DNA of 64,000 nt from positions 31,607 to 95,606 of the forward strand of contig CAZJHG010000001.1 in the NCBI GenBank assembly GCA_964545885.1. Direction: 5' to 3'. Shown piece by piece: positions 6,440-17,720 of this stretch. Made by a program: the position numbers and the translations under genes. The stretch comes from an uncultured Muribaculaceae bacterium (GTDB taxonomy: Bacteria; Bacillota_I; Bacilli_A; RF39; UBA660). Within the stretch, counting starts at the first letter, position 1; every line of letters begins with the position of its first letter. The notes beneath the pieces are model-generated. The model did not search any database, was not told the origin of the DNA, and worked only from the letters and a program-made list of their open reading frames with translations.

Positions 6440-6466
6440 TTAGCACTTGTCAATAAAGAGTGCTAA
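6440..6466. promoter_or_regulatory. CIRCE operator (HrcA binding site)
   Basis: TTAGCACTT-N9-GAGTGCTAA compared with the consensus TTAGCACTC-N9-GAGTGCTAA. It lies 41 nt upstream of the hsp20 start and directly abuts a minus-strand TATAAT. Confidence 0.85.
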
Positions 6467-6490
6467 TTATATATTTATTTTATGTTCTTT

Positions 6491-6520
6491 TTACATATTT
6501 ATACATTTTTTTGTTATAAT
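6491..6520 (+). promoter_or_regulatory. promoter of the dihydrouridine synthase gene
   Basis: TTACAT, 18-nt spacer, then TGtTATAAT (extended -10), 22 nt upstream of ATG 6543. Confidence 0.5.
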
Positions 6521-6542
6521 ACAAACGACTGAGGTGATTAGC

Positions 6543-7532
6543 ATGTGGAAAATAGGTAATGTAGAAATAAAAAATAAAATAGTACTAGCTCCTATGGCTG
6601 GAATATCAAACACATCATATCGTAAGATTATTAAGGAAATGGGAGCCGGTTTAATATACGCTGAGATGGTCAGTGATAAAGCAATTATGTATTCAAACGA
6701 AAAGACATTTGATTTATTAAAAATGGATGAAATGGAAAGACCTATCACACAACAAATATTTGGTAGTGACGTTGAATCATTTGTAACAGCCGCTAAAATA
6801 ATAGAGGAGAAAATGCACCCAGATATTATAGATATTAATATGGGATGCCCAGTTCCTAAAGTGGCAATTCGTGCTCAAGCTGGCAGTGCATTGTTAAAAA
6901 ATCCAGATAAAATTTATGAAATAGTAAAAGCTGTAGTCGAAAGTGTTTCAGTACCTGTAACTGTAAAAATAAGAAGTGGTTGGGATGAAAAACATATTAA
7001 TGCAGTAGAAGTTGCTCAAGTATGCGAAAAAGCAGGAGCCAAAGCTATTGCTATTCACGCTCGCACTCGTTCACAAGGTTATAGTGGTAAAGCAGATTGG
7101 TCTATTATAAAAAAAGTAAAAGAATCTGTATCCATTCCAGTAATAGGAAATGGTGATGTAACAACACCAGAATTAGCTAAAGAAATGTTAGATACTACAG
7201 GATGTGACGCAGTAATGATAGGTAGAGGAGTACTAGGTAATCCATGGCTAATCAAAGAATGTGTTGAATATTTAGAAAAAGGCACCAAGCCAGAACCAAC
7301 TTCGTTTATTGAAAAAGTAGATATGATGAAAAGACACTATAAGATGCTATTAGAAGACAAGTGTGAAAAAGCAGCATTGTTAGAAATAAGAAGTTTTATT
7401 ATATGGTACCTAAAAGGAATGCCTAAAAGCAAAGAAATTAAAAATCAAATTTGTCAAAGTAAAACTAGTGAAGAAATGTTTCGTATCATAGAAGATTACA
7501 AAAATTATTTATTAGAAGTATCTGAAAAATAA
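6543..7532 (+). CDS. dusB: tRNA-dihydrouridine synthase (DusB-like)
   Basis: [23 protein letters not shown] and the NMGCP motif. Start at ATG 6543 after GAGGTGA. The track extension back to 6447 covers the promoter and CIRCE. Confidence 0.85.
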
Positions 7533-7555
7533 CACCCTAAAGTGTTATTTTTTTA
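7528..7555 (+). terminator. intrinsic terminator
   Basis: AATAACAC / GTGTTATT stem followed by T6. It overlaps the convergent gene's stop codon. Confidence 0.65.
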
Positions 7556-8592
7556 TACATATCATTTTCGTATAGAACAACATTAGTATTTAACGTTATT
7601 CCGTATTTAGAAAGGATATCTAATATATTATATTGTGTAGCATTAAGTATAATGTCTTGAAGTATTTTTAAAGCTAATTCTTTATTTTTATGATATAAAA
7701 CATACAACTCAACAGCAATCAAATAAGGAATCTGATAAGAATTATCTTGCATTAAATTAGCTTCTAATAAATAACAAATATCATCCATATCAAAATCATG
7801 CATAGCAAGATACTCGAATAATTTTTTTTCATTCAGCTCTTTTTTATCATTAACTAGATTAAGTAGTCTATACTTATCTATTAAAATAGTTGCTTGAGAT
7901 TTTATTATAGTATGTAAATAGTTTCTCCTTTGGAATCCATCATTAAGTAATTGGTATTTATTAGCTATAAAATCACTCGCAAGTAATTCAAAAAATATGG
8001 CGGATGTTTCTCGTATAACATAATCATTTAAAAAATCAGGATTATAAAAAAAGTCTATACAATGTTCTAATTCATGAATTAAAATAGTGAATTTTGTTAT
8101 ATTAGAATGATTAGGTACAAATACAAATGCTTCACCAGTGCTTTTTAACATTAAGGTTTCCCCGTCAGTATCAGCATCCTTGTCAACAAACTTTAAATGA
8201 TCATCAGCTTCATCAGCAAACTCTTCAAATTGTGAATAAAAGAAATCACCTTGTAGTTGAAAAAAATCTTTAGCATTTTCCATAGTTTGTTCATCACTCA
8301 TACAAAATGGAGTATAGACAGTGTCAAAAGCTAATTCTTCTTGACATCTACCTAACGTAGCAAAATTATGGAAAATAGGGTAAAAAGGCTTATAAAAATG
8401 TAAATCTTCCGCATCATCTATCAATTTTTCATACAAAGAAATATCCGATTCCATAAATTTATTTTCTAGGCGATTTATGTATCCACTTAAGCAATGAATA
8501 TCTGAACTAACAACGGAATCTTCTTCGTACAATCGCAATGTATTAAGTATTAATTTTAAATCATTAATTTTTATATCGTAAGCTTTTTCCAT
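7537..8592 (-). CDS. short M3-like zinc metallopeptidase paralog 3 (HELEH)
   Basis: HELEH with a downstream ETSAIFFEL motif, matching the M3/PepF-type HExxH...E arrangement. RBS AAAGGAG. Its start overlaps the upstream gene's end by 29 nt. Confidence 0.6.
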   Translation of the reverse strand: MEKAYDIKINDLKLILNTLRLYEEDSVVSSDIHCLSGYINRLENKFMESDISLYEKLIDDAEDLHFYKPFYPIFHNFATLGRCQEELAFDTVYTPFCMSDEQTMENAKDFFQLQGDFFYSQFEEFADEADDHLKFVDKDADTDGETLMLKSTGEAFVFVPNHSNITKFTILIHELEHCIDFFYNPDFLNDYVIRETSAIFFELLASDFIANKYQLLNDGFQRRNYLHTIIKSQATILIDKYRLLNLVNDKKELNEKKLFEYLAMHDFDMDDICYLLEANLMQDNSYQIPYLIAVELYVLYHKNKELALKILQDIILNATQYNILDILSKYGITLNTNVVLYENDMYKKITL

Positions 8593-9703
8593 CTTTAAGC
8601 TCCTTTGCTTTATCCATCAGTATTTCTATGTAGCTATCAAAATGTTTACCAGGCTCTAATCCTAATTTTTTAATAAAACCTAAATATTCTTGATTACTTC
8701 TTTCCTCTTGCATAATTATTTTAAATAACAAGTCTAAAGCCTTATCGGGAAAACTTTGATAAATCAAGTATAATTCGATAGCTGTCAAATAAGATATTAT
8801 ATAATGCATTATATCTCTTATATATGTATTTAAAATATCAGTAGTTCCATATTTATCACATCCTACGCCAGAAAGATATTTTTTTACAGTCCTTTTACTA
8901 GTTAATTCTTTATATGTAAGTGCATTATACATATCTAGCTTAGTACAAATTAACTGAGCAGAGTAGAGATAATCATTTAAACATTCAATATTTATATTAA
9001 AACTATCTTTCTGTAAGTTTAAATTTTTTCCAATATAATCTATTCCTAGAAGTTCAAAAAACAAAGAATCAACTTCTATTAAACAATATTTTTCTATATC
9101 CCACATCGCCTCAGAGTTTAAAGAACAGGATATCCCGTGACCAAACTCATGTATTGCAGAAATATAATCTTGTGCTGTGTAATTATATCCAATTTCGAAG
9201 AAAGTAATATCAGTTTTGTAAATAGAATAGGTTTGACCAAATTCTTTCGCAGCATCTCCAATTTTTTTAAAATGTAATGTATGTTTAAAATTTTTAGCTA
9301 AAGTAGAATATGAGTCATTAAAGACACCATTAAATTGACCATAAAAATCTTTACTAGTTCTTAAGACTTTTCCAATGGTTGTATCGACTTTGCTTAATTC
9401 AGTTGGATTAATGATTAATCTAGTATTATAATCATTTAATAATCTTATATAGGGGCATGAATAACCATATTTATCTATAATATGTGAATCGCTATGTATC
9501 ATATCACCAAATGATGAAATTTCATAATTAACAGGCGTAAATCTTTGTTTACGTATCATTTCATAATATCTATCTATTACGCAAAGAATCGAATTAAGAG
9601 TACTTTGATATTGTAATGACTGCATTGGATCATTAGTAACTTCAACTAAAATTTCATATTGTTTTTTAAGCTTTTTTAAATAATTAATATCCCAATGTTG
9701 CAT
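8564..9703 (-). CDS. short M3-like zinc metallopeptidase paralog 2 (HEFGH)
   Basis: HEFGH with a downstream IEVDSLFFEL motif. It starts 2 nt after the upstream paralog's stop. Confidence 0.6.
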   Translation of the reverse strand: MQHWDINYLKKLKKQYEILVEVTNDPMQSLQYQSTLNSILCVIDRYYEMIRKQRFTPVNYEISSFGDMIHSDSHIIDKYGYSCPYIRLLNDYNTRLIINPTELSKVDTTIGKVLRTSKDFYGQFNGVFNDSYSTLAKNFKHTLHFKKIGDAAKEFGQTYSIYKTDITFFEIGYNYTAQDYISAIHEFGHGISCSLNSEAMWDIEKYCLIEVDSLFFELLGIDYIGKNLNLQKDSFNINIECLNDYLYSAQLICTKLDMYNALTYKELTSKRTVKKYLSGVGCDKYGTTDILNTYIRDIMHYIISYLTAIELYLIYQSFPDKALDLLFKIIMQEERSNQEYLGFIKKLGLEPGKHFDSYIEILMDKAKELKDGKSLRYKN

Positions 9704-9705
9704 AA

Positions 9706-10866
9706 CTAAATTCTTCTTTCTAATTTTTTATCAAAGCTATTTAAGATATTTCCTATCTCTCCATTTACATGTTTATTTAATTCAAAATTCTCTTTTACGT
9801 AAACAAGAATATCTTGATTAGCTGGATATTTTAGAAAACCTTTAAACAACTCTAATGCTTTCTTCTTATCTTTTTTATATATAGAGAAAAGTTCTAGTGC
9901 TACAATAAAGCTTATTACATAAACACCTTCTTCTTCTATTGTAGTAAGCAAGGTATTTTCAAAACATTCTTTATCCATAATATAATTATTTTTGATTGAT
10001 TTAAAGAATCCTTTTGACATAGTATAACTATGAGCAGACCATTCATTAACTAAAGGAGTATGTAATGTAAGAAATTCAGCATAGTTAATATATGTAACAC
10101 AAGTTGTATATAGGGCATAATCTTTTTCTAACTGAGTAAAATTACCATCGCTCTCATATATAGCAACTAATTCTGGAAATATTGCTGCAACTTCTAAAAA
10201 GAAGTCATTGCGTTCATCATAAGATACTTCCGGATTTATAATATTTTGAATAGCATGTCCATATTCATGAATCGTACAAGCATAGGTGTCTAGTGGAGTA
10301 GAATCATAAATAGTAATAAAATTTTTCTTAACACCATCTATAAAACAGGTGTTACCATCAGTTGCTTTAATTTCATTATCATCTCTATTTTTCAAAAATC
10401 TCAATGTACCATTTCTATCATTGTAAACAGATAAAAAATATTCAAATAATTCACTGTCAAATTTACTATAAAATTCATAAACTAAACTTAATGTTTTTTC
10501 ATGATTTATTGTCGCACCAGTTTGTAAAAAATAGAAATCTCCGTTCTTATCAATTTTTTCAAGTTCCTCAGAAATTCTATCAATTAATTCTAAATGATTT
10601 ACACACTCGTTAAAAAAAGCATTAATAATAGAGTAGTATCTTCCATATTCTAATCTTGAATCCAAAATATTAGCTAAAGACTGCTTCTTAGTAACATTAG
10701 GAACTGGAGAATTATTAAATAATCTATTAAATAACTTGTCAGTGACATCAGCTACTTTTTCTAAGTAAAGACGTTTTTTTAAGTCGGTCTCAGTAGCAAT
10801 TAATTCTTGTAATTTTTTTGCTTGATTGACAAATTCATCATATCCCCAAGTGTAAACCATAAACAT
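9706..10866 (-). CDS. short M3-like zinc metallopeptidase paralog 1 (HEYGH)
   Basis: HEYGHAIQ with a downstream FLEVAAIFPEL motif. The RBS AAGGGGA abuts ATG 10866, so the third codon, ATG 10860, may be the true start. Confidence 0.6.
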   Translation of the reverse strand: MFMVYTWGYDEFVNQAKKLQELIATETDLKKRLYLEKVADVTDKLFNRLFNNSPVPNVTKKQSLANILDSRLEYGRYYSIINAFFNECVNHLELIDRISEELEKIDKNGDFYFLQTGATINHEKTLSLVYEFYSKFDSELFEYFLSVYNDRNGTLRFLKNRDDNEIKATDGNTCFIDGVKKNFITIYDSTPLDTYACTIHEYGHAIQNIINPEVSYDERNDFFLEVAAIFPELVAIYESDGNFTQLEKDYALYTTCVTYINYAEFLTLHTPLVNEWSAHSYTMSKGFFKSIKNNYIMDKECFENTLLTTIEEEGVYVISFIVALELFSIYKKDKKKALELFKGFLKYPANQDILVYVKENFELNKHVNGEIGNILNSFDKKLERRI

Positions 10867-10932
10867 TCCCCTTAATTAATGAATTATGATAACACACATA
10901 TATATAAAGTTCAAATGAACATCAAAAAAATA

Positions 10933-10961
10933 TTGACTAAAAAAAATAAAAAGTATATACT
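10933..10961 (+). promoter_or_regulatory. near-consensus sigma-A type promoter facing into the ORF-poor spacer
   Basis: TTGACT, 17-nt spacer, then TATACT. Confidence 0.6.
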
Positions 10962-10967
10962 TATTAT

Positions 10968-11987
10968 AGTAAGGAGGTATACAGGAGACGAAATCATTTT
11001 AGTACCTGTAAAATATGGTTTAGGGCATAAACTTGAAAAATAGTGAAAATATAAAGAAATTTATATTTCGTTTGTGAAAAAGTATATAAAAAGCAAGTAT
11101 TAAAAAAGATAGCCCGCAAAGCTATCACAAAATTCATTACCGCAAATAATGAATTTACAACTTGTAACATGTGTATTTGCAGTACATTTGTATATTAGTA
11201 ATAGTTTACTAAGTCAACAAGTTTTCCAGCGTGAGAAATCATGACTGAAGAGGATATATGTTACCAATATATTCTATTCGTCGACTGTTAGTCGTTGAAT
11301 GGTTAAAAACTCATCCCCATTCGATCACTATTCAAGCAATTGAAGTATCAAATTACCATGATGGTGTTATTAATAGTTTGCATTTTCTATTTTTCCAAAA
11401 TGGATGATAACACTTTGATGAAAAAGATGGGTAGCTTTCATACTAGTCCAGATATTATTAAATTAATATCGCAAGTATGTTATGCATTTTTGATCATTTT
11501 TGTTGAAGTATCTTAAAACTACCTTATTTGAATTTAAATTATTATTCCTGGTGAAAAGCATATAGGAGATAATTTATTGGGATTTTAAGGCAAGTAGATT
11601 ATACGAAATAACAATCTGTCCGCGTTTAAAAAATTGGAGAGTCTTAAACTTGTCTTGCAAGAGAACCAAGCAATCCAAATGTTGAGTAAAAACCTTCTTG
11701 GTTAGCTGCTGAGTAGTAAGTTACAATATGCTATATCGTGAGCGCGCGTATAAATAAAATTTAGCGATGAATTGGAGAACTCTTATACAAAAGTATAGTT
11801 AAACGTGAATGTGTTAATATTACTTGGAATACAGGATGGTTGACGTCACTGTGTTTATGAAACTATCAAAATAGTATGTCAAACTCATTCAGCTATATGG
11901 GAGTTAATTTTAAAACGAACAAATGCAAAAAGAGTTGAAATACACTCGGAAAAGAACGATTAATGTTCTTTTTTTTTTGCTTTTTTT
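10968..11987 (+). ncRNA. candidate ~1-kb non-coding transcript of unknown class
   Basis: Bounded by the promoter at 10933 and the terminator at 11950. It has no ORF of 60 codons or more in any frame. The core from about 11105 to 11960 is visibly more G+C-rich than other spacers and contains several hairpins. No match to a known RNA class was recognised. Confidence 0.3.
11950..11987 (+). terminator. intrinsic terminator
   Basis: AAGAAC / GTTCTT stem (extendable by A-T pairs), 7-nt loop, T10 run, then GC and T7. Confidence 0.6.
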
Positions 11988-12051
11988 ATCACATTAGTCT
12001 ATTATTTTTATGATTTTTGACTTAATTTAACAGACATATAATTACAATATA

Positions 12052-12080
12052 TTGATTTAGAATGTGAAACGTTATAAAAT
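12052..12080 (+). promoter_or_regulatory. possible promoter of the FIST-ALDH operon
   Basis: TTGATT, 17-nt spacer, then TAAAAT. Weak. Confidence 0.3.
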
Positions 12081-12144
12081 TAAAATAAGGAGGATTATAA
12101 AAAATCCGAACTGAAAATTGCGCGAATAAGAAGGAGGAATTTAT

Positions 12145-14751: not shown

Positions 14752-14780
14752 AAAAACGATAACTAAAAAATATAGCAAAA

Positions 14781-14820
14781 AAGTTCTAAAGGTATTGACT
14801 TTTAGAACTTTTTATTTTTT
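14781..14820 (+). terminator. intrinsic terminator
   Basis: AAGTTCTAAA / TTTAGAACTT 10-bp stem, 10-nt loop, T-rich tail. Confidence 0.8.
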
Positions 14821-15134
14821 TAAAAAAAACGCTTTTTTTTAAAAATGTAAATTTTGCGAAAATCAATTTTTTTAAAAAAGTAAATATTTGTAAATCGAAC
14901 AATAAAAAAACTAAAAAAGCCCGCAAAGCTAGTGAATATAAGGAAAAAACGTTTTTTTGTTTTTAAAAAATAGTATAAACAAAAATCAAAAAATCCCTAA
15001 AAAACGGCAAAAACGAAAAAATCAAAATAATCAAAAAAACGATTTTTTGAAAAAAATTAAAAAGTTAAACTTCCTATTTTTTTCTATACCATTTATAATG
15101 GAATTAGGAAAAGGTAAAAGGAGAGTTTTTGAAT

Positions 15135-17459: not shown

Positions 17460-17482
17460 AGAAGTAGAAAGAGGTAAAAGGT

Positions 17483-17668
17483 ATGAAAACAGAAAAAATC
17501 GAAAAAACTGCTGAAACAAAAGTTGAAAGCAAAAAAATGGTTGGTGAAGGAGTAGGATTCGAAAGAATCAGAAGAATCACTGGTTATTTAGTAGGAACTG
17601 TTGAAAGATTCAACGACGGCAAAAGAGCAGAAGAAAGAGACAGAGTAAAACACACATTTGAAAAGTAG
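17483..17668 (+). CDS. separately encoded NrdD glycyl-radical domain (61 aa)
   Basis: FERIRRITGYLVGTVERFNDGKRAEERDRVKH parallels the NrdD C-terminus RRVCGYLG...FN.GK..E...RVKH. It has its own RBS (AGAGGTAAAAGG) and is in a different frame from nrdD. Confidence 0.75.
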   Translation: MKTEKIEKTAETKVESKKMVGEGVGFERIRRITGYLVGTVERFNDGKRAEERDRVKHTFEK

Positions 17669-17720
17669 TAGAAATAAACTACTATCTTTTGAAATCACAC
17701 ATATTAATAAGTCTAATTAA

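Follow-up and report, generated by a model that had tools for sequence, protein, structure and literature searches.

Few large, ornate bacterial RNAs of unassigned function are known, and the discovery of each has opened new work, most recently when OLE, ROOL and GOLLD were shown by cryo-electron microscopy (cryo-EM) to form RNA-only homo-oligomers (PMC12286853). The OLE homodimer contains a symmetric kissing loop in which a tetranucleotide covaries between palindromes, ROOL assembles as an octameric cage bridged by kissing loops and has an internal linker of poor conservation, and the RNA-only multimers of GOLLD are held by kissing loops that interact with themselves, with a change of the central GC to CG in one of them (PMC12286853). 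Variants of OLE also occur in RF39 bacteria (PMC11332333). Here, we describe the spacer at positions 10867-12144 of a 64-kb stretch of DNA from an RF39 bacterium (this whole stretch is called the window below), in which there is almost certainly a genuine gene whose product, a large structured RNA, represents a new class. We consider it quite probable that this is a stand-alone plus-strand gene, and that its structured RNA of about 1,010 nucleotides (nt) works as a homodimer or homo-oligomer joined by kissing palindromes. RF39 bacteria are common uncultured members of human and animal gut communities and have very small genomes, and that so small a genome has kept a 1-kb RNA gene implies that its role is important.

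Like OLE, the RNA is large, conserved and built of many helices, belongs to anaerobic Bacillota and has a transcription unit to itself, and it carries the same signature of covarying palindromes. However, OLE is only about 600 nt long, and no oapA-like small membrane-protein gene was found among the neighbours of this RNA that were checked. An OLE variant was rejected on these grounds (no covariance-model match, an RNA about 400 nt longer and no oapA-like neighbour). With GOLLD, a very large ornate RNA of about 800 nt, it shares the combination of a variable part and a conserved 3' part, and the GC-to-CG switch of GOLLD is comparable with a UGCA-to-UCGA change seen here. GOLLD typically lies in prophages or beside tRNAs, whereas this RNA has one syntenic chromosomal copy, no viral homologue was found for it, and it does not match the GOLLD model. 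ROOL is likewise a large ornate RNA from gut, rumen, Bacillota or Tenericutes-like hosts, and its linker resembles the variable, expandable domain of this RNA, which in contrast is nearly twice as long, has no phage or tRNA association and does not match the ROOL model.

At the gathering threshold, Rfam 15 models recognised only two tRNAs in the whole window; at E <= 10, the segment 10700-12300 and nine homologous loci gave chance matches only (sau-41, GAIT and others, far below threshold). Thus, in the Rfam comparison that an earlier note on this DNA had asked for, no family was matched by the window spacer or by the nine homologous loci. OLE, ROOL, GOLLD, HEARO, raiA, group I and II introns, RNase P, tmRNA and riboswitches are excluded as far as covariance models can see. 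ARAGORN detected no tRNA- or tmRNA-like gene in the region and no tRNA in or beside the spacer. A blastn search of the spacer against phage and plasmid records gave no match, and the 66 loci returned by three conserved-motif scans of IMG/VR were all chance matches by nhmmer, so that the element was present in none of them. Literature searches on large or ornate RNAs, RF39, GC-rich intergenic regions (GC-IGR) and Coprovivens yielded no account of the RNA, although an unindexed description is possible. With nothing related at the family level in Rfam 15 or the searchable literature, it joins, by kind, the few orphan ornate RNAs.

The spacer is 1,278 nt long and is the longest of the window, the runners-up (692 and 525 nt) each containing a tRNA. 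The longest open reading frame (ORF) on either strand has 58 amino acids, and six-frame translation gives 26-40 stops per frame. Although short ORFs of 31-58 amino acids occur in the window copy of the RNA region, the ORF conservation test across homologues revealed no common ORF of at least 25 amino acids; the indels among homologues are mostly not multiples of three, and ATG triplets downstream of a GGAGG box near the RNA's 5' end have been gained and lost. The same gap of 1.25-1.3 kb without called genes is present in four further contigs annotated by independent gene callers. The spacer has a G+C content of 0.28, which rises to 0.30 in the predicted RNA and 0.31 in 11105-11960; most other spacers lie at 0.11-0.25 and coding sequence at 0.273. 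Folded as a single sequence, 10968-11978 has a minimum free energy of -228.5 kcal/mol (z = -3.6 relative to 60 dinucleotide shuffles), and the covariation presented below is much stronger evidence of structure than this z-score.

Relatives' loci were fetched through the downstream FIST protein, with one genome per species. The closest loci (FIST 70-94% identical) are metagenome-assembled genomes named Candidatus Coprovivens or "uncultured Bacilli/Tenericutes/Erysipelotrichaceae"; Coprovivens has been placed in GTDB order RF39, family CAG-1000 (PMC8035907). Both blastn and nhmmer showed that the spacer is conserved across about 10924-11977 wherever the fetched loci include sequence upstream of FIST (one incomplete locus, L007, retains the 3' end only, and another, L006, ends just upstream of FIST), and the RNA was found in every sufficiently complete relative locus. 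About 28 additional copies came from one metagenome scan with the invariant 19-mer UUAGCGAUGAAUUGGAGAA as bait, and the RNA is also present on four contigs reached via DusB. Altogether, there are at least 27 distinct sequences at 97% identity and 10 clades at 80%, with lengths of 933-1,071 nt, a lowest pairwise identity of 56% and 258 invariant alignment columns. The RNA region of the homologues is 66-90% identical to that of the window, whereas four-fold sites of the adjacent FIST gene are 47-61% identical, i.e. saturated; the RNA region therefore evolves more slowly than these sites, which indicates that the spacer is under purifying selection.

Each locus, like the window, has a single copy of the RNA, which lies in strict synteny between dusB and nrdD, in the conserved order dusB, zero to three opposite-strand paralogues, the RNA, FIST (NosP-like), aldehyde dehydrogenase and nrdD. 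Neither the paralogues nor FIST are obligate partners, because some RNA-bearing genomes lack the paralogues and the homologue L089 lacks FIST. A DusB protein search for distant syntenic loci yielded none beyond the clade, the best 120 clusters all being at least 77% identical. When the window and 70 more distant FIST loci were searched with the covariance model of the conserved core (R1; 191 positions, 50 base pairs), only the window copy was recovered; the FIST-aldehyde dehydrogenase module of those 70 loci sits in another neighbourhood, so this result does not show that the RNA is absent from those genomes.

Covariation carries the structural argument. The RNAalifold consensus of 26 sequences contains 190 pairs, 96 of which show compensatory double changes. 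The proportion of paired cells is 96.4%, compared with 32-46% in controls in which the partners were slid by 1-3 columns; 536 cells are changed on both sides (67-120 in the slid controls), and the covariation score is 0.381 as against no more than 0.10 for the controls. These observed values were reached by none of 500 shuffles. G-U pairs account for 13.7% of the paired cells, and the alignment folding energy is -123.5 kcal/mol for the plus strand and -43.1 kcal/mol for the minus strand; the RNA therefore lies on the plus strand. The ribosum-scored fold from RNAalifold gives 38 helices that map to window coordinates, and a pseudoknot joins 11310-11316 to 11425-11431 (96.7% paired, three compensatory pairs). 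The long-range pairings 11433-11447/11892-11905 and 11472-11477/11821-11826 and the local pairing 11439-11443/11477-11481 are equally compatible with the alignment, and the global fold is provisional for this reason. The conserved GGCUUUCAUAC segment has two mutually exclusive pairings that both agree with the alignment (11439-11443/11477-11481 versus 11433-11447/11892-11905), which could be alternative RNA conformations or an artefact of clade-linked substitutions.

The boundaries of the gene are also conserved. The promoter-like site TTGACT-17-TATACT is the best of the region (10 of 12 matches) and nearly invariant in 25 homologues, with the -35 box at least 90% conserved and the -10 box being TATACT or TATAAT; UAUAGUAAGGAGGUAUACAG around the predicted start is kept as well. 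From the promoter spacing, transcription is predicted to start near 10968. At the other end, the terminator hairpin (-7.7 kcal/mol) is followed by ten U's and shows compensatory changes in six of its eight pairs, such as GAAC/GUUC to GAAU/AUUC. A simple terminator scan requiring at least three G-C pairs missed this stem, which has two. The linker between the conserved body and the terminator ranges from 0 to about 70 nt and is variable in sequence, suggesting a plain rather than regulated terminator. A conserved promoter and terminator around a covarying noncoding body are what an independent noncoding RNA gene would display, and this sequence evidence points to such a gene. Near the 5' end, the GGAGG box occurs in all homologues and has no conserved internal complement. 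In Bacillus mRNAs such as cryIIIA, a stabilising Shine-Dalgarno (STAB-SD) element, i.e. a strong Shine-Dalgarno (SD)-like GGAGG near the 5' end, is not used for translation start. By analogy, the box is a candidate 5' stabiliser, but it differs from STAB-SD elements in heading a noncoding RNA, and its stabilising role is putative.

These data bear on the proposals of the earlier note, whose main interpretation, namely that the spacer has its own promoter and terminator and yields a large structured noncoding RNA of about 1 kb, is supported by the conservation of the whole unit, the plus-strand covariation and the lack of a conserved ORF. Its description of the spacer as the longest, without any ORF of 60 codons or more and with raised G+C, agrees with the values given above, and the promoter at 10933-10961, the hairpin with a T-run and the SD-like 5' boxes without a usable start were all borne out by the homologues, in which no start codon is conserved. 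The comparison with related genomes, which it had named as a way to overturn the idea if neither conservation nor covariation appeared, revealed both; the remnants of a protein gene that it had considered as another refutation were not encountered in the six-frame translation or the ORF conservation test. The most informative feature of the RNA, its self-complementary loops, was absent from that note.

The first of these loops belongs to a hairpin with an invariant stem at 11732-11752, whose last six loop nucleotides form a palindrome. Eight variants of this 6-mer were observed, namely GCGCGC (window), GUGCGC, GAGCUC, GGAUCC, ACGCGU, UCGCGA, GUGCAC and UCGCGU, and it is fully self-complementary (G-U allowed) in 28 of the 29 core-alignment sequences. 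Treated as three self-pairs, it shows both-sided changes in all three, with 98.8% of the cells pairing. Neighbouring nucleotides cannot pair inside one chain. An intramolecular extension of the hairpin was rejected, one pair being broken in 12 of 28 sequences without any compensatory change, and no RNA of the set contains a second copy of its own 6-mer. Given these three facts, pairing between copies is the sole base-pairing explanation left. The human immunodeficiency virus 1 (HIV-1) dimerisation initiation site (DIS), a hairpin loop with a 6-nt palindrome (GCGCGC or GUGCAC by subtype), nucleates RNA homodimers by kissing, and both of its 6-mers are among the variants of this RNA. The two are otherwise unlike: DIS has a 9-nt loop in a viral genome and no evolutionary relation to this RNA, in whose 10-nt loop the palindrome directly abuts the stem on its 3' side.

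The second loop lies in UCUUGCAAGA. Most sequences have CUUGCAAG at this site, whereas L125 has CUUCGAAG and the L008 clade has UUUCGAAA; the element remains self-complementary throughout while switching from UGCA to UCGA. Cryo-EM has borne out the same argument from self-complementary covariation for OLE L9.3 (GGCC/GAUC/AGCU) and GOLLD L21a (GC/CG), both symmetric kissing loops (PMC12286853). Loops that covary yet stay self-complementary mark the homo-oligomeric ornate RNAs, a functional kind rather than a homology family, and the loops found here suggest that this RNA belongs to it. Overall, palindrome-mediated self-association of the RNA copies appears reasonably likely.

In the proposed mechanism, a strong sigma-70-type promoter would drive transcription up to the intrinsic terminator near 11978, and the product would fold into three parts: a 5' hairpin domain with CGCAAA and UUUGC(R) loops or strands able to pair mutually, a pseudoknotted centre, and a 3' half closed by long-range helices and holding the variable, expandable domain together with the very conserved core. 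This core would display the GCGCGC palindrome and UCUUGCAAGA, which may make symmetric kissing contacts between RNA copies, and the working form would be a homodimer or higher homo-oligomer, with or without proteins. The exposed 5' GGAGG probably attaches to the 30S subunit or to the 3' end of 16S rRNA, shielding the RNA from 5' exonuclease, which would give a long-lived, abundant RNA. Candidate biochemical roles are a scaffold, a cage, a ribozyme or a ribonucleoprotein. More tentatively, and with some doubt on our side, we suggest an undescribed RNA class, confined to reduced-genome, uncultured RF39 gut symbionts, whose two independent symmetric kissing sites produce an RNA-only multimeric particle. 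If so, two distinct two-fold contacts would permit closed dihedral assemblies besides dimers, and this would be the fourth natural RNA-only multimer after OLE, ROOL and GOLLD, with the variable repeat-expandable domain as a possible cargo or linker. The RNA is longer than these three, its covariation is unusually clean, and its palindromic-loop signature predicts palindrome-dependent self-assembly. To our knowledge, a size of about 1 kb would make it the largest structured non-ribosomal bacterial noncoding RNA gene.

Several points weigh against the homo-oligomer and its parts. The palindromes are indirect evidence for oligomerisation, and a mismatch is present in the 6-mer of one of the 29 core-alignment sequences (UCGCGU) and, outside that alignment, in a second UCGCGU and a GUGCUC. 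The second kissing site rests on two lineages, local alternatives are as well supported as some of the long-range helices, the role of the 5' GGAGG box is argued from analogy alone, and the transcript ends and abundance are predictions. The RNA has no known partner protein or phenotype, and its known distribution is narrow, being confined to one RF39 lineage and one syntenic position. The structural and conservation evidence would fit equally well a large structured RNA acting as a monomer, either a ribozyme or a protein scaffold, in which the self-complementary loops serve another purpose; long invariant stretches, for example the 19-mer at 11761-11779, could then be a catalytic or protein-binding core. 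We regard this as rather unlikely, since it leaves the eight self-complementary 6-mer variants without a reason: a protein site would keep sequence, not symmetry.

The remaining explanations all fit the data poorly. That the RNA lies upstream of and co-oriented with FIST in nearly all loci, with its terminator 110-170 nt ahead of the gene, could indicate a giant riboswitch-like or attenuating leader that controls the FIST (NosP-like) and aldehyde dehydrogenase genes through the terminator. Such a leader is very unlikely, given the variable linker before the terminator with no conserved antiterminator apparent, the promoter-like sites between the terminator and the FIST gene, and the lack of a riboswitch family match; furthermore, L089 has the RNA without FIST, about 70 other lineages have the FIST-aldehyde dehydrogenase pair without the RNA in another neighbourhood, and 1 kb far exceeds any known leader. 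A divergent or degenerate form of a known mobile or phage-associated RNA (ROOL, GOLLD or an ORF-less group II intron) would account for the similar size and ornateness in AT-rich Bacillota hosts, but it is highly improbable in view of the failed Rfam 15 matches in the window, the region and the nine loci, the single-copy state with strict dusB-nrdD synteny and no adjacent tRNA, and the lack of homologues in the phage and plasmid BLAST and IMG/VR scans. A group II intron in particular was rejected: there is neither a match to an Rfam intron model nor a long ORF, and the element is flanked by a promoter and terminator of its own instead of intron boundaries. Coding-like G+C and the ORFs of 31-58 amino acids in the window copy would suit a decayed protein gene or a small-protein mRNA; the 26-40 stops in all six frames, the absence of a shared ORF of at least 25 amino acids, the indels out of multiples of three, conservation above that of synonymous sites and the compensatory helix substitutions make this barely credible. 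The palindrome-kissing RNA thus remains our preferred explanation, and the features of its gene are listed in Table 1.

Table 1. Features of the predicted RNA gene, in window coordinates
Feature	Position	Strand	Evidence or remarks
Promoter, sigma-70-type	10933-10961	+	-35 TTGACT (10933-10938), 17-nt spacer, -10 TATACT (10956-10961)
Predicted RNA, about 1,010 nt	10968-11978	+	Conservation, consensus structure, covariation, strand, no conserved ORF
SD-like boxes AAGGAGGT (10971-10978) and AGGAGA (10983-10988)	10971-10988	+	No conserved start codon after them
UUUGUG strand, candidate pseudoknot with hairpin A loop CGCAAA (11115-11120)	11071-11076	+	Complementary, conserved
Hairpin A, stem GAUAGC/GCUAUC, 7-nt loop CCGCAAA (11114-11120)	11108-11126	+	Stem covariation
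Hairpin B, loop CCGCAAA (11139-11145) as in hairpin A	11130-11154	+	Compensatory changes in 6 of 6 pairs
Hairpin 3, loop UUUGCAG (11176-11182), complementary to GCAAA loops	11167-11191	+	99-100% paired, 3 compensatory pairs
Three 5'-domain helices	11195-11212, 11227-11247, 11251-11275	+	96-100% paired; 6, 5 and 8 compensatory pairs
Long hairpin, 13-14 base pairs; loop strand 11310-11316 pseudoknots with 11425-11431	11289-11330	+	97% paired, 9 compensatory pairs
GNRA-capped hairpin UUCAA-GCAA-UUGAA	11331-11344	+	Compensatory changes in 4 of 4 pairs; loop GCAA or GAAA in most homologues
Branched stem	11357-11420	+	Compensatory changes in 12 of 15 pairs
Near-invariant 16-nt segment in branched stem	11374-11389	+	UAGUUUGCAUUUUCUA in the window, consensus UAGUUAGCAUUUUCUA
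5' strand of long-range helix closing the 3' half, partner 11892-11905	11433-11447	+	96-100% paired
5' strands of long-range helices, partner 11809-11826	11472-11487	+	96-98% paired
Variable domain, nested helices	11495-11618	+	87-98% paired; compensatory changes in nearly every pair
Most conserved core domain, model R1	11618-11809	+	Alignment A4: 29 sequences, 78% mean column identity
Self-complementary UCUUGCAAGA, loop UGCA (11656-11659), candidate second symmetric kissing site	11653-11662	+
Hairpin UAUA(U)C/GUAUA, 10-nt loop of GUGA plus palindrome GCGCGC (11742-11747)	11732-11752	+	Proposed kissing-loop self-association site
19-mer UUAGCGAUGAAUUGGAGAA	11761-11779	+	Invariant in full-length alignment; one substitution in homologue L009
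Hairpin UAUAC-AAAA-GUAUA	11784-11797	+	100% paired, invariant in 26 full-length sequences
3'-domain hairpin ACUAU-CAAA-AUAGU	11862-11875	+	98% paired, nearly invariant
Closing helix 3' strand (11892-11905), then conserved tail ACAAAUGCA to 11926	11892-11926	+
Intrinsic terminator AAAAGAAC-GAUUAAU-GUUCUUUU plus U-run	11950-11979	+	Hairpin 11950-11972

Within the 5' domain, the stem of hairpin A varies as AGC/GCU, AGU/ACU, GAC/GUC and UGG/CCA in the alignment, and hairpins A and B folded together locally give z = -7.2. The UUUGUG/CGCAAA helix from the ribosum-scored RNAalifold analysis (columns 173-178/223-228 of alignment A2) is 94% paired with one compensatory pair. Hairpins B and 3 may pair through their loops. 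Their loop identities are exchanged in the L008 clade, where hairpin B has UUUGCAG, and this swap suggests that CGCAAA and UUUGUG/UUUGCAG make a conserved loop-loop contact, either intra- or intermolecular. Changes in the helix closing the 3' half are mostly one-sided (G-U to A-U), with one or two compensatory pairs.

Some of these local structures had already been named in the earlier note. The two hairpins with identical CCGCAAA loops were recovered at the positions given in Table 1, and the GNRA-capped hairpin gained covariation support. In contrast, two of the stems listed there did not survive the comparison: CGACT/AGTCG (11282-11294) has just 60% of its cells paired across homologues, and AACCAAG/CTTGGTT has 73% paired with zero compensatory changes, its true coordinates being 11664-11670 and 11697-11703, one base off from those reported. 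As for the repeated 9-mer AATTGGAGA, its second copy (11770-11778) is invariant, whereas the first is not.

Tandem repeats were observed in two homologues. In L009, an insertion of about 700 nt (8868-9502 of that locus) contains about 14 copies of a 45-nt unit, GGUGAAAUAG...GGAUACAUAAACA, and sits between the 5' half and the conserved core, in or beside the variable domain. L089, the most divergent homologue, lies on a 267-kb contig with no FIST gene downstream and has a 23-nt unit repeated about six times immediately 5' to the conserved core (997-1132, with the RNA on the minus strand of the locus).

Upstream of the RNA, the minus strand at 7537-10866 encodes three paralogous ORFs (7537-8592, 8564-9703 and 9706-10866). 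These paralogues have no Pfam match, and searches of PADLOC, Pfam, NCBIfam and PDB gave them no function in defence or related to RNA. The paralogue beside the RNA has the HExxH zinc-protease motif in the form HEYGH and weakly matches the C-terminus of M3 oligoendopeptidases. The paralogues are 25-64% identical where the flanking genes are 80-97% identical, indicating unusually fast evolution, and relatives have zero to three copies.

Downstream, a 61-amino-acid ORF on the plus strand (17483-17668), directly 3' of nrdD, appears to be a glycyl-radical C-terminal segment (RRITGYLVG), so that the anaerobic ribonucleotide reductase appears to be split into two ORFs. Relatives conserve this segment at 79-93% identity, and its presence accounts for the high G+C of the "spacer" at 17460-17688. 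Ahead of nrdD, the AT-rich spacer at 14752-15128, in which the whole-window scan found no Rfam family at the gathering threshold, can be aligned at 65-75% identity in most relatives and may hold regulatory sites. Finally, the DusB ORF (6447-7532, plus strand) has 361 amino acids when read from its TTG, about 30 codons more than its homologues (327-332 amino acids), and the real DusB start is probably further downstream.

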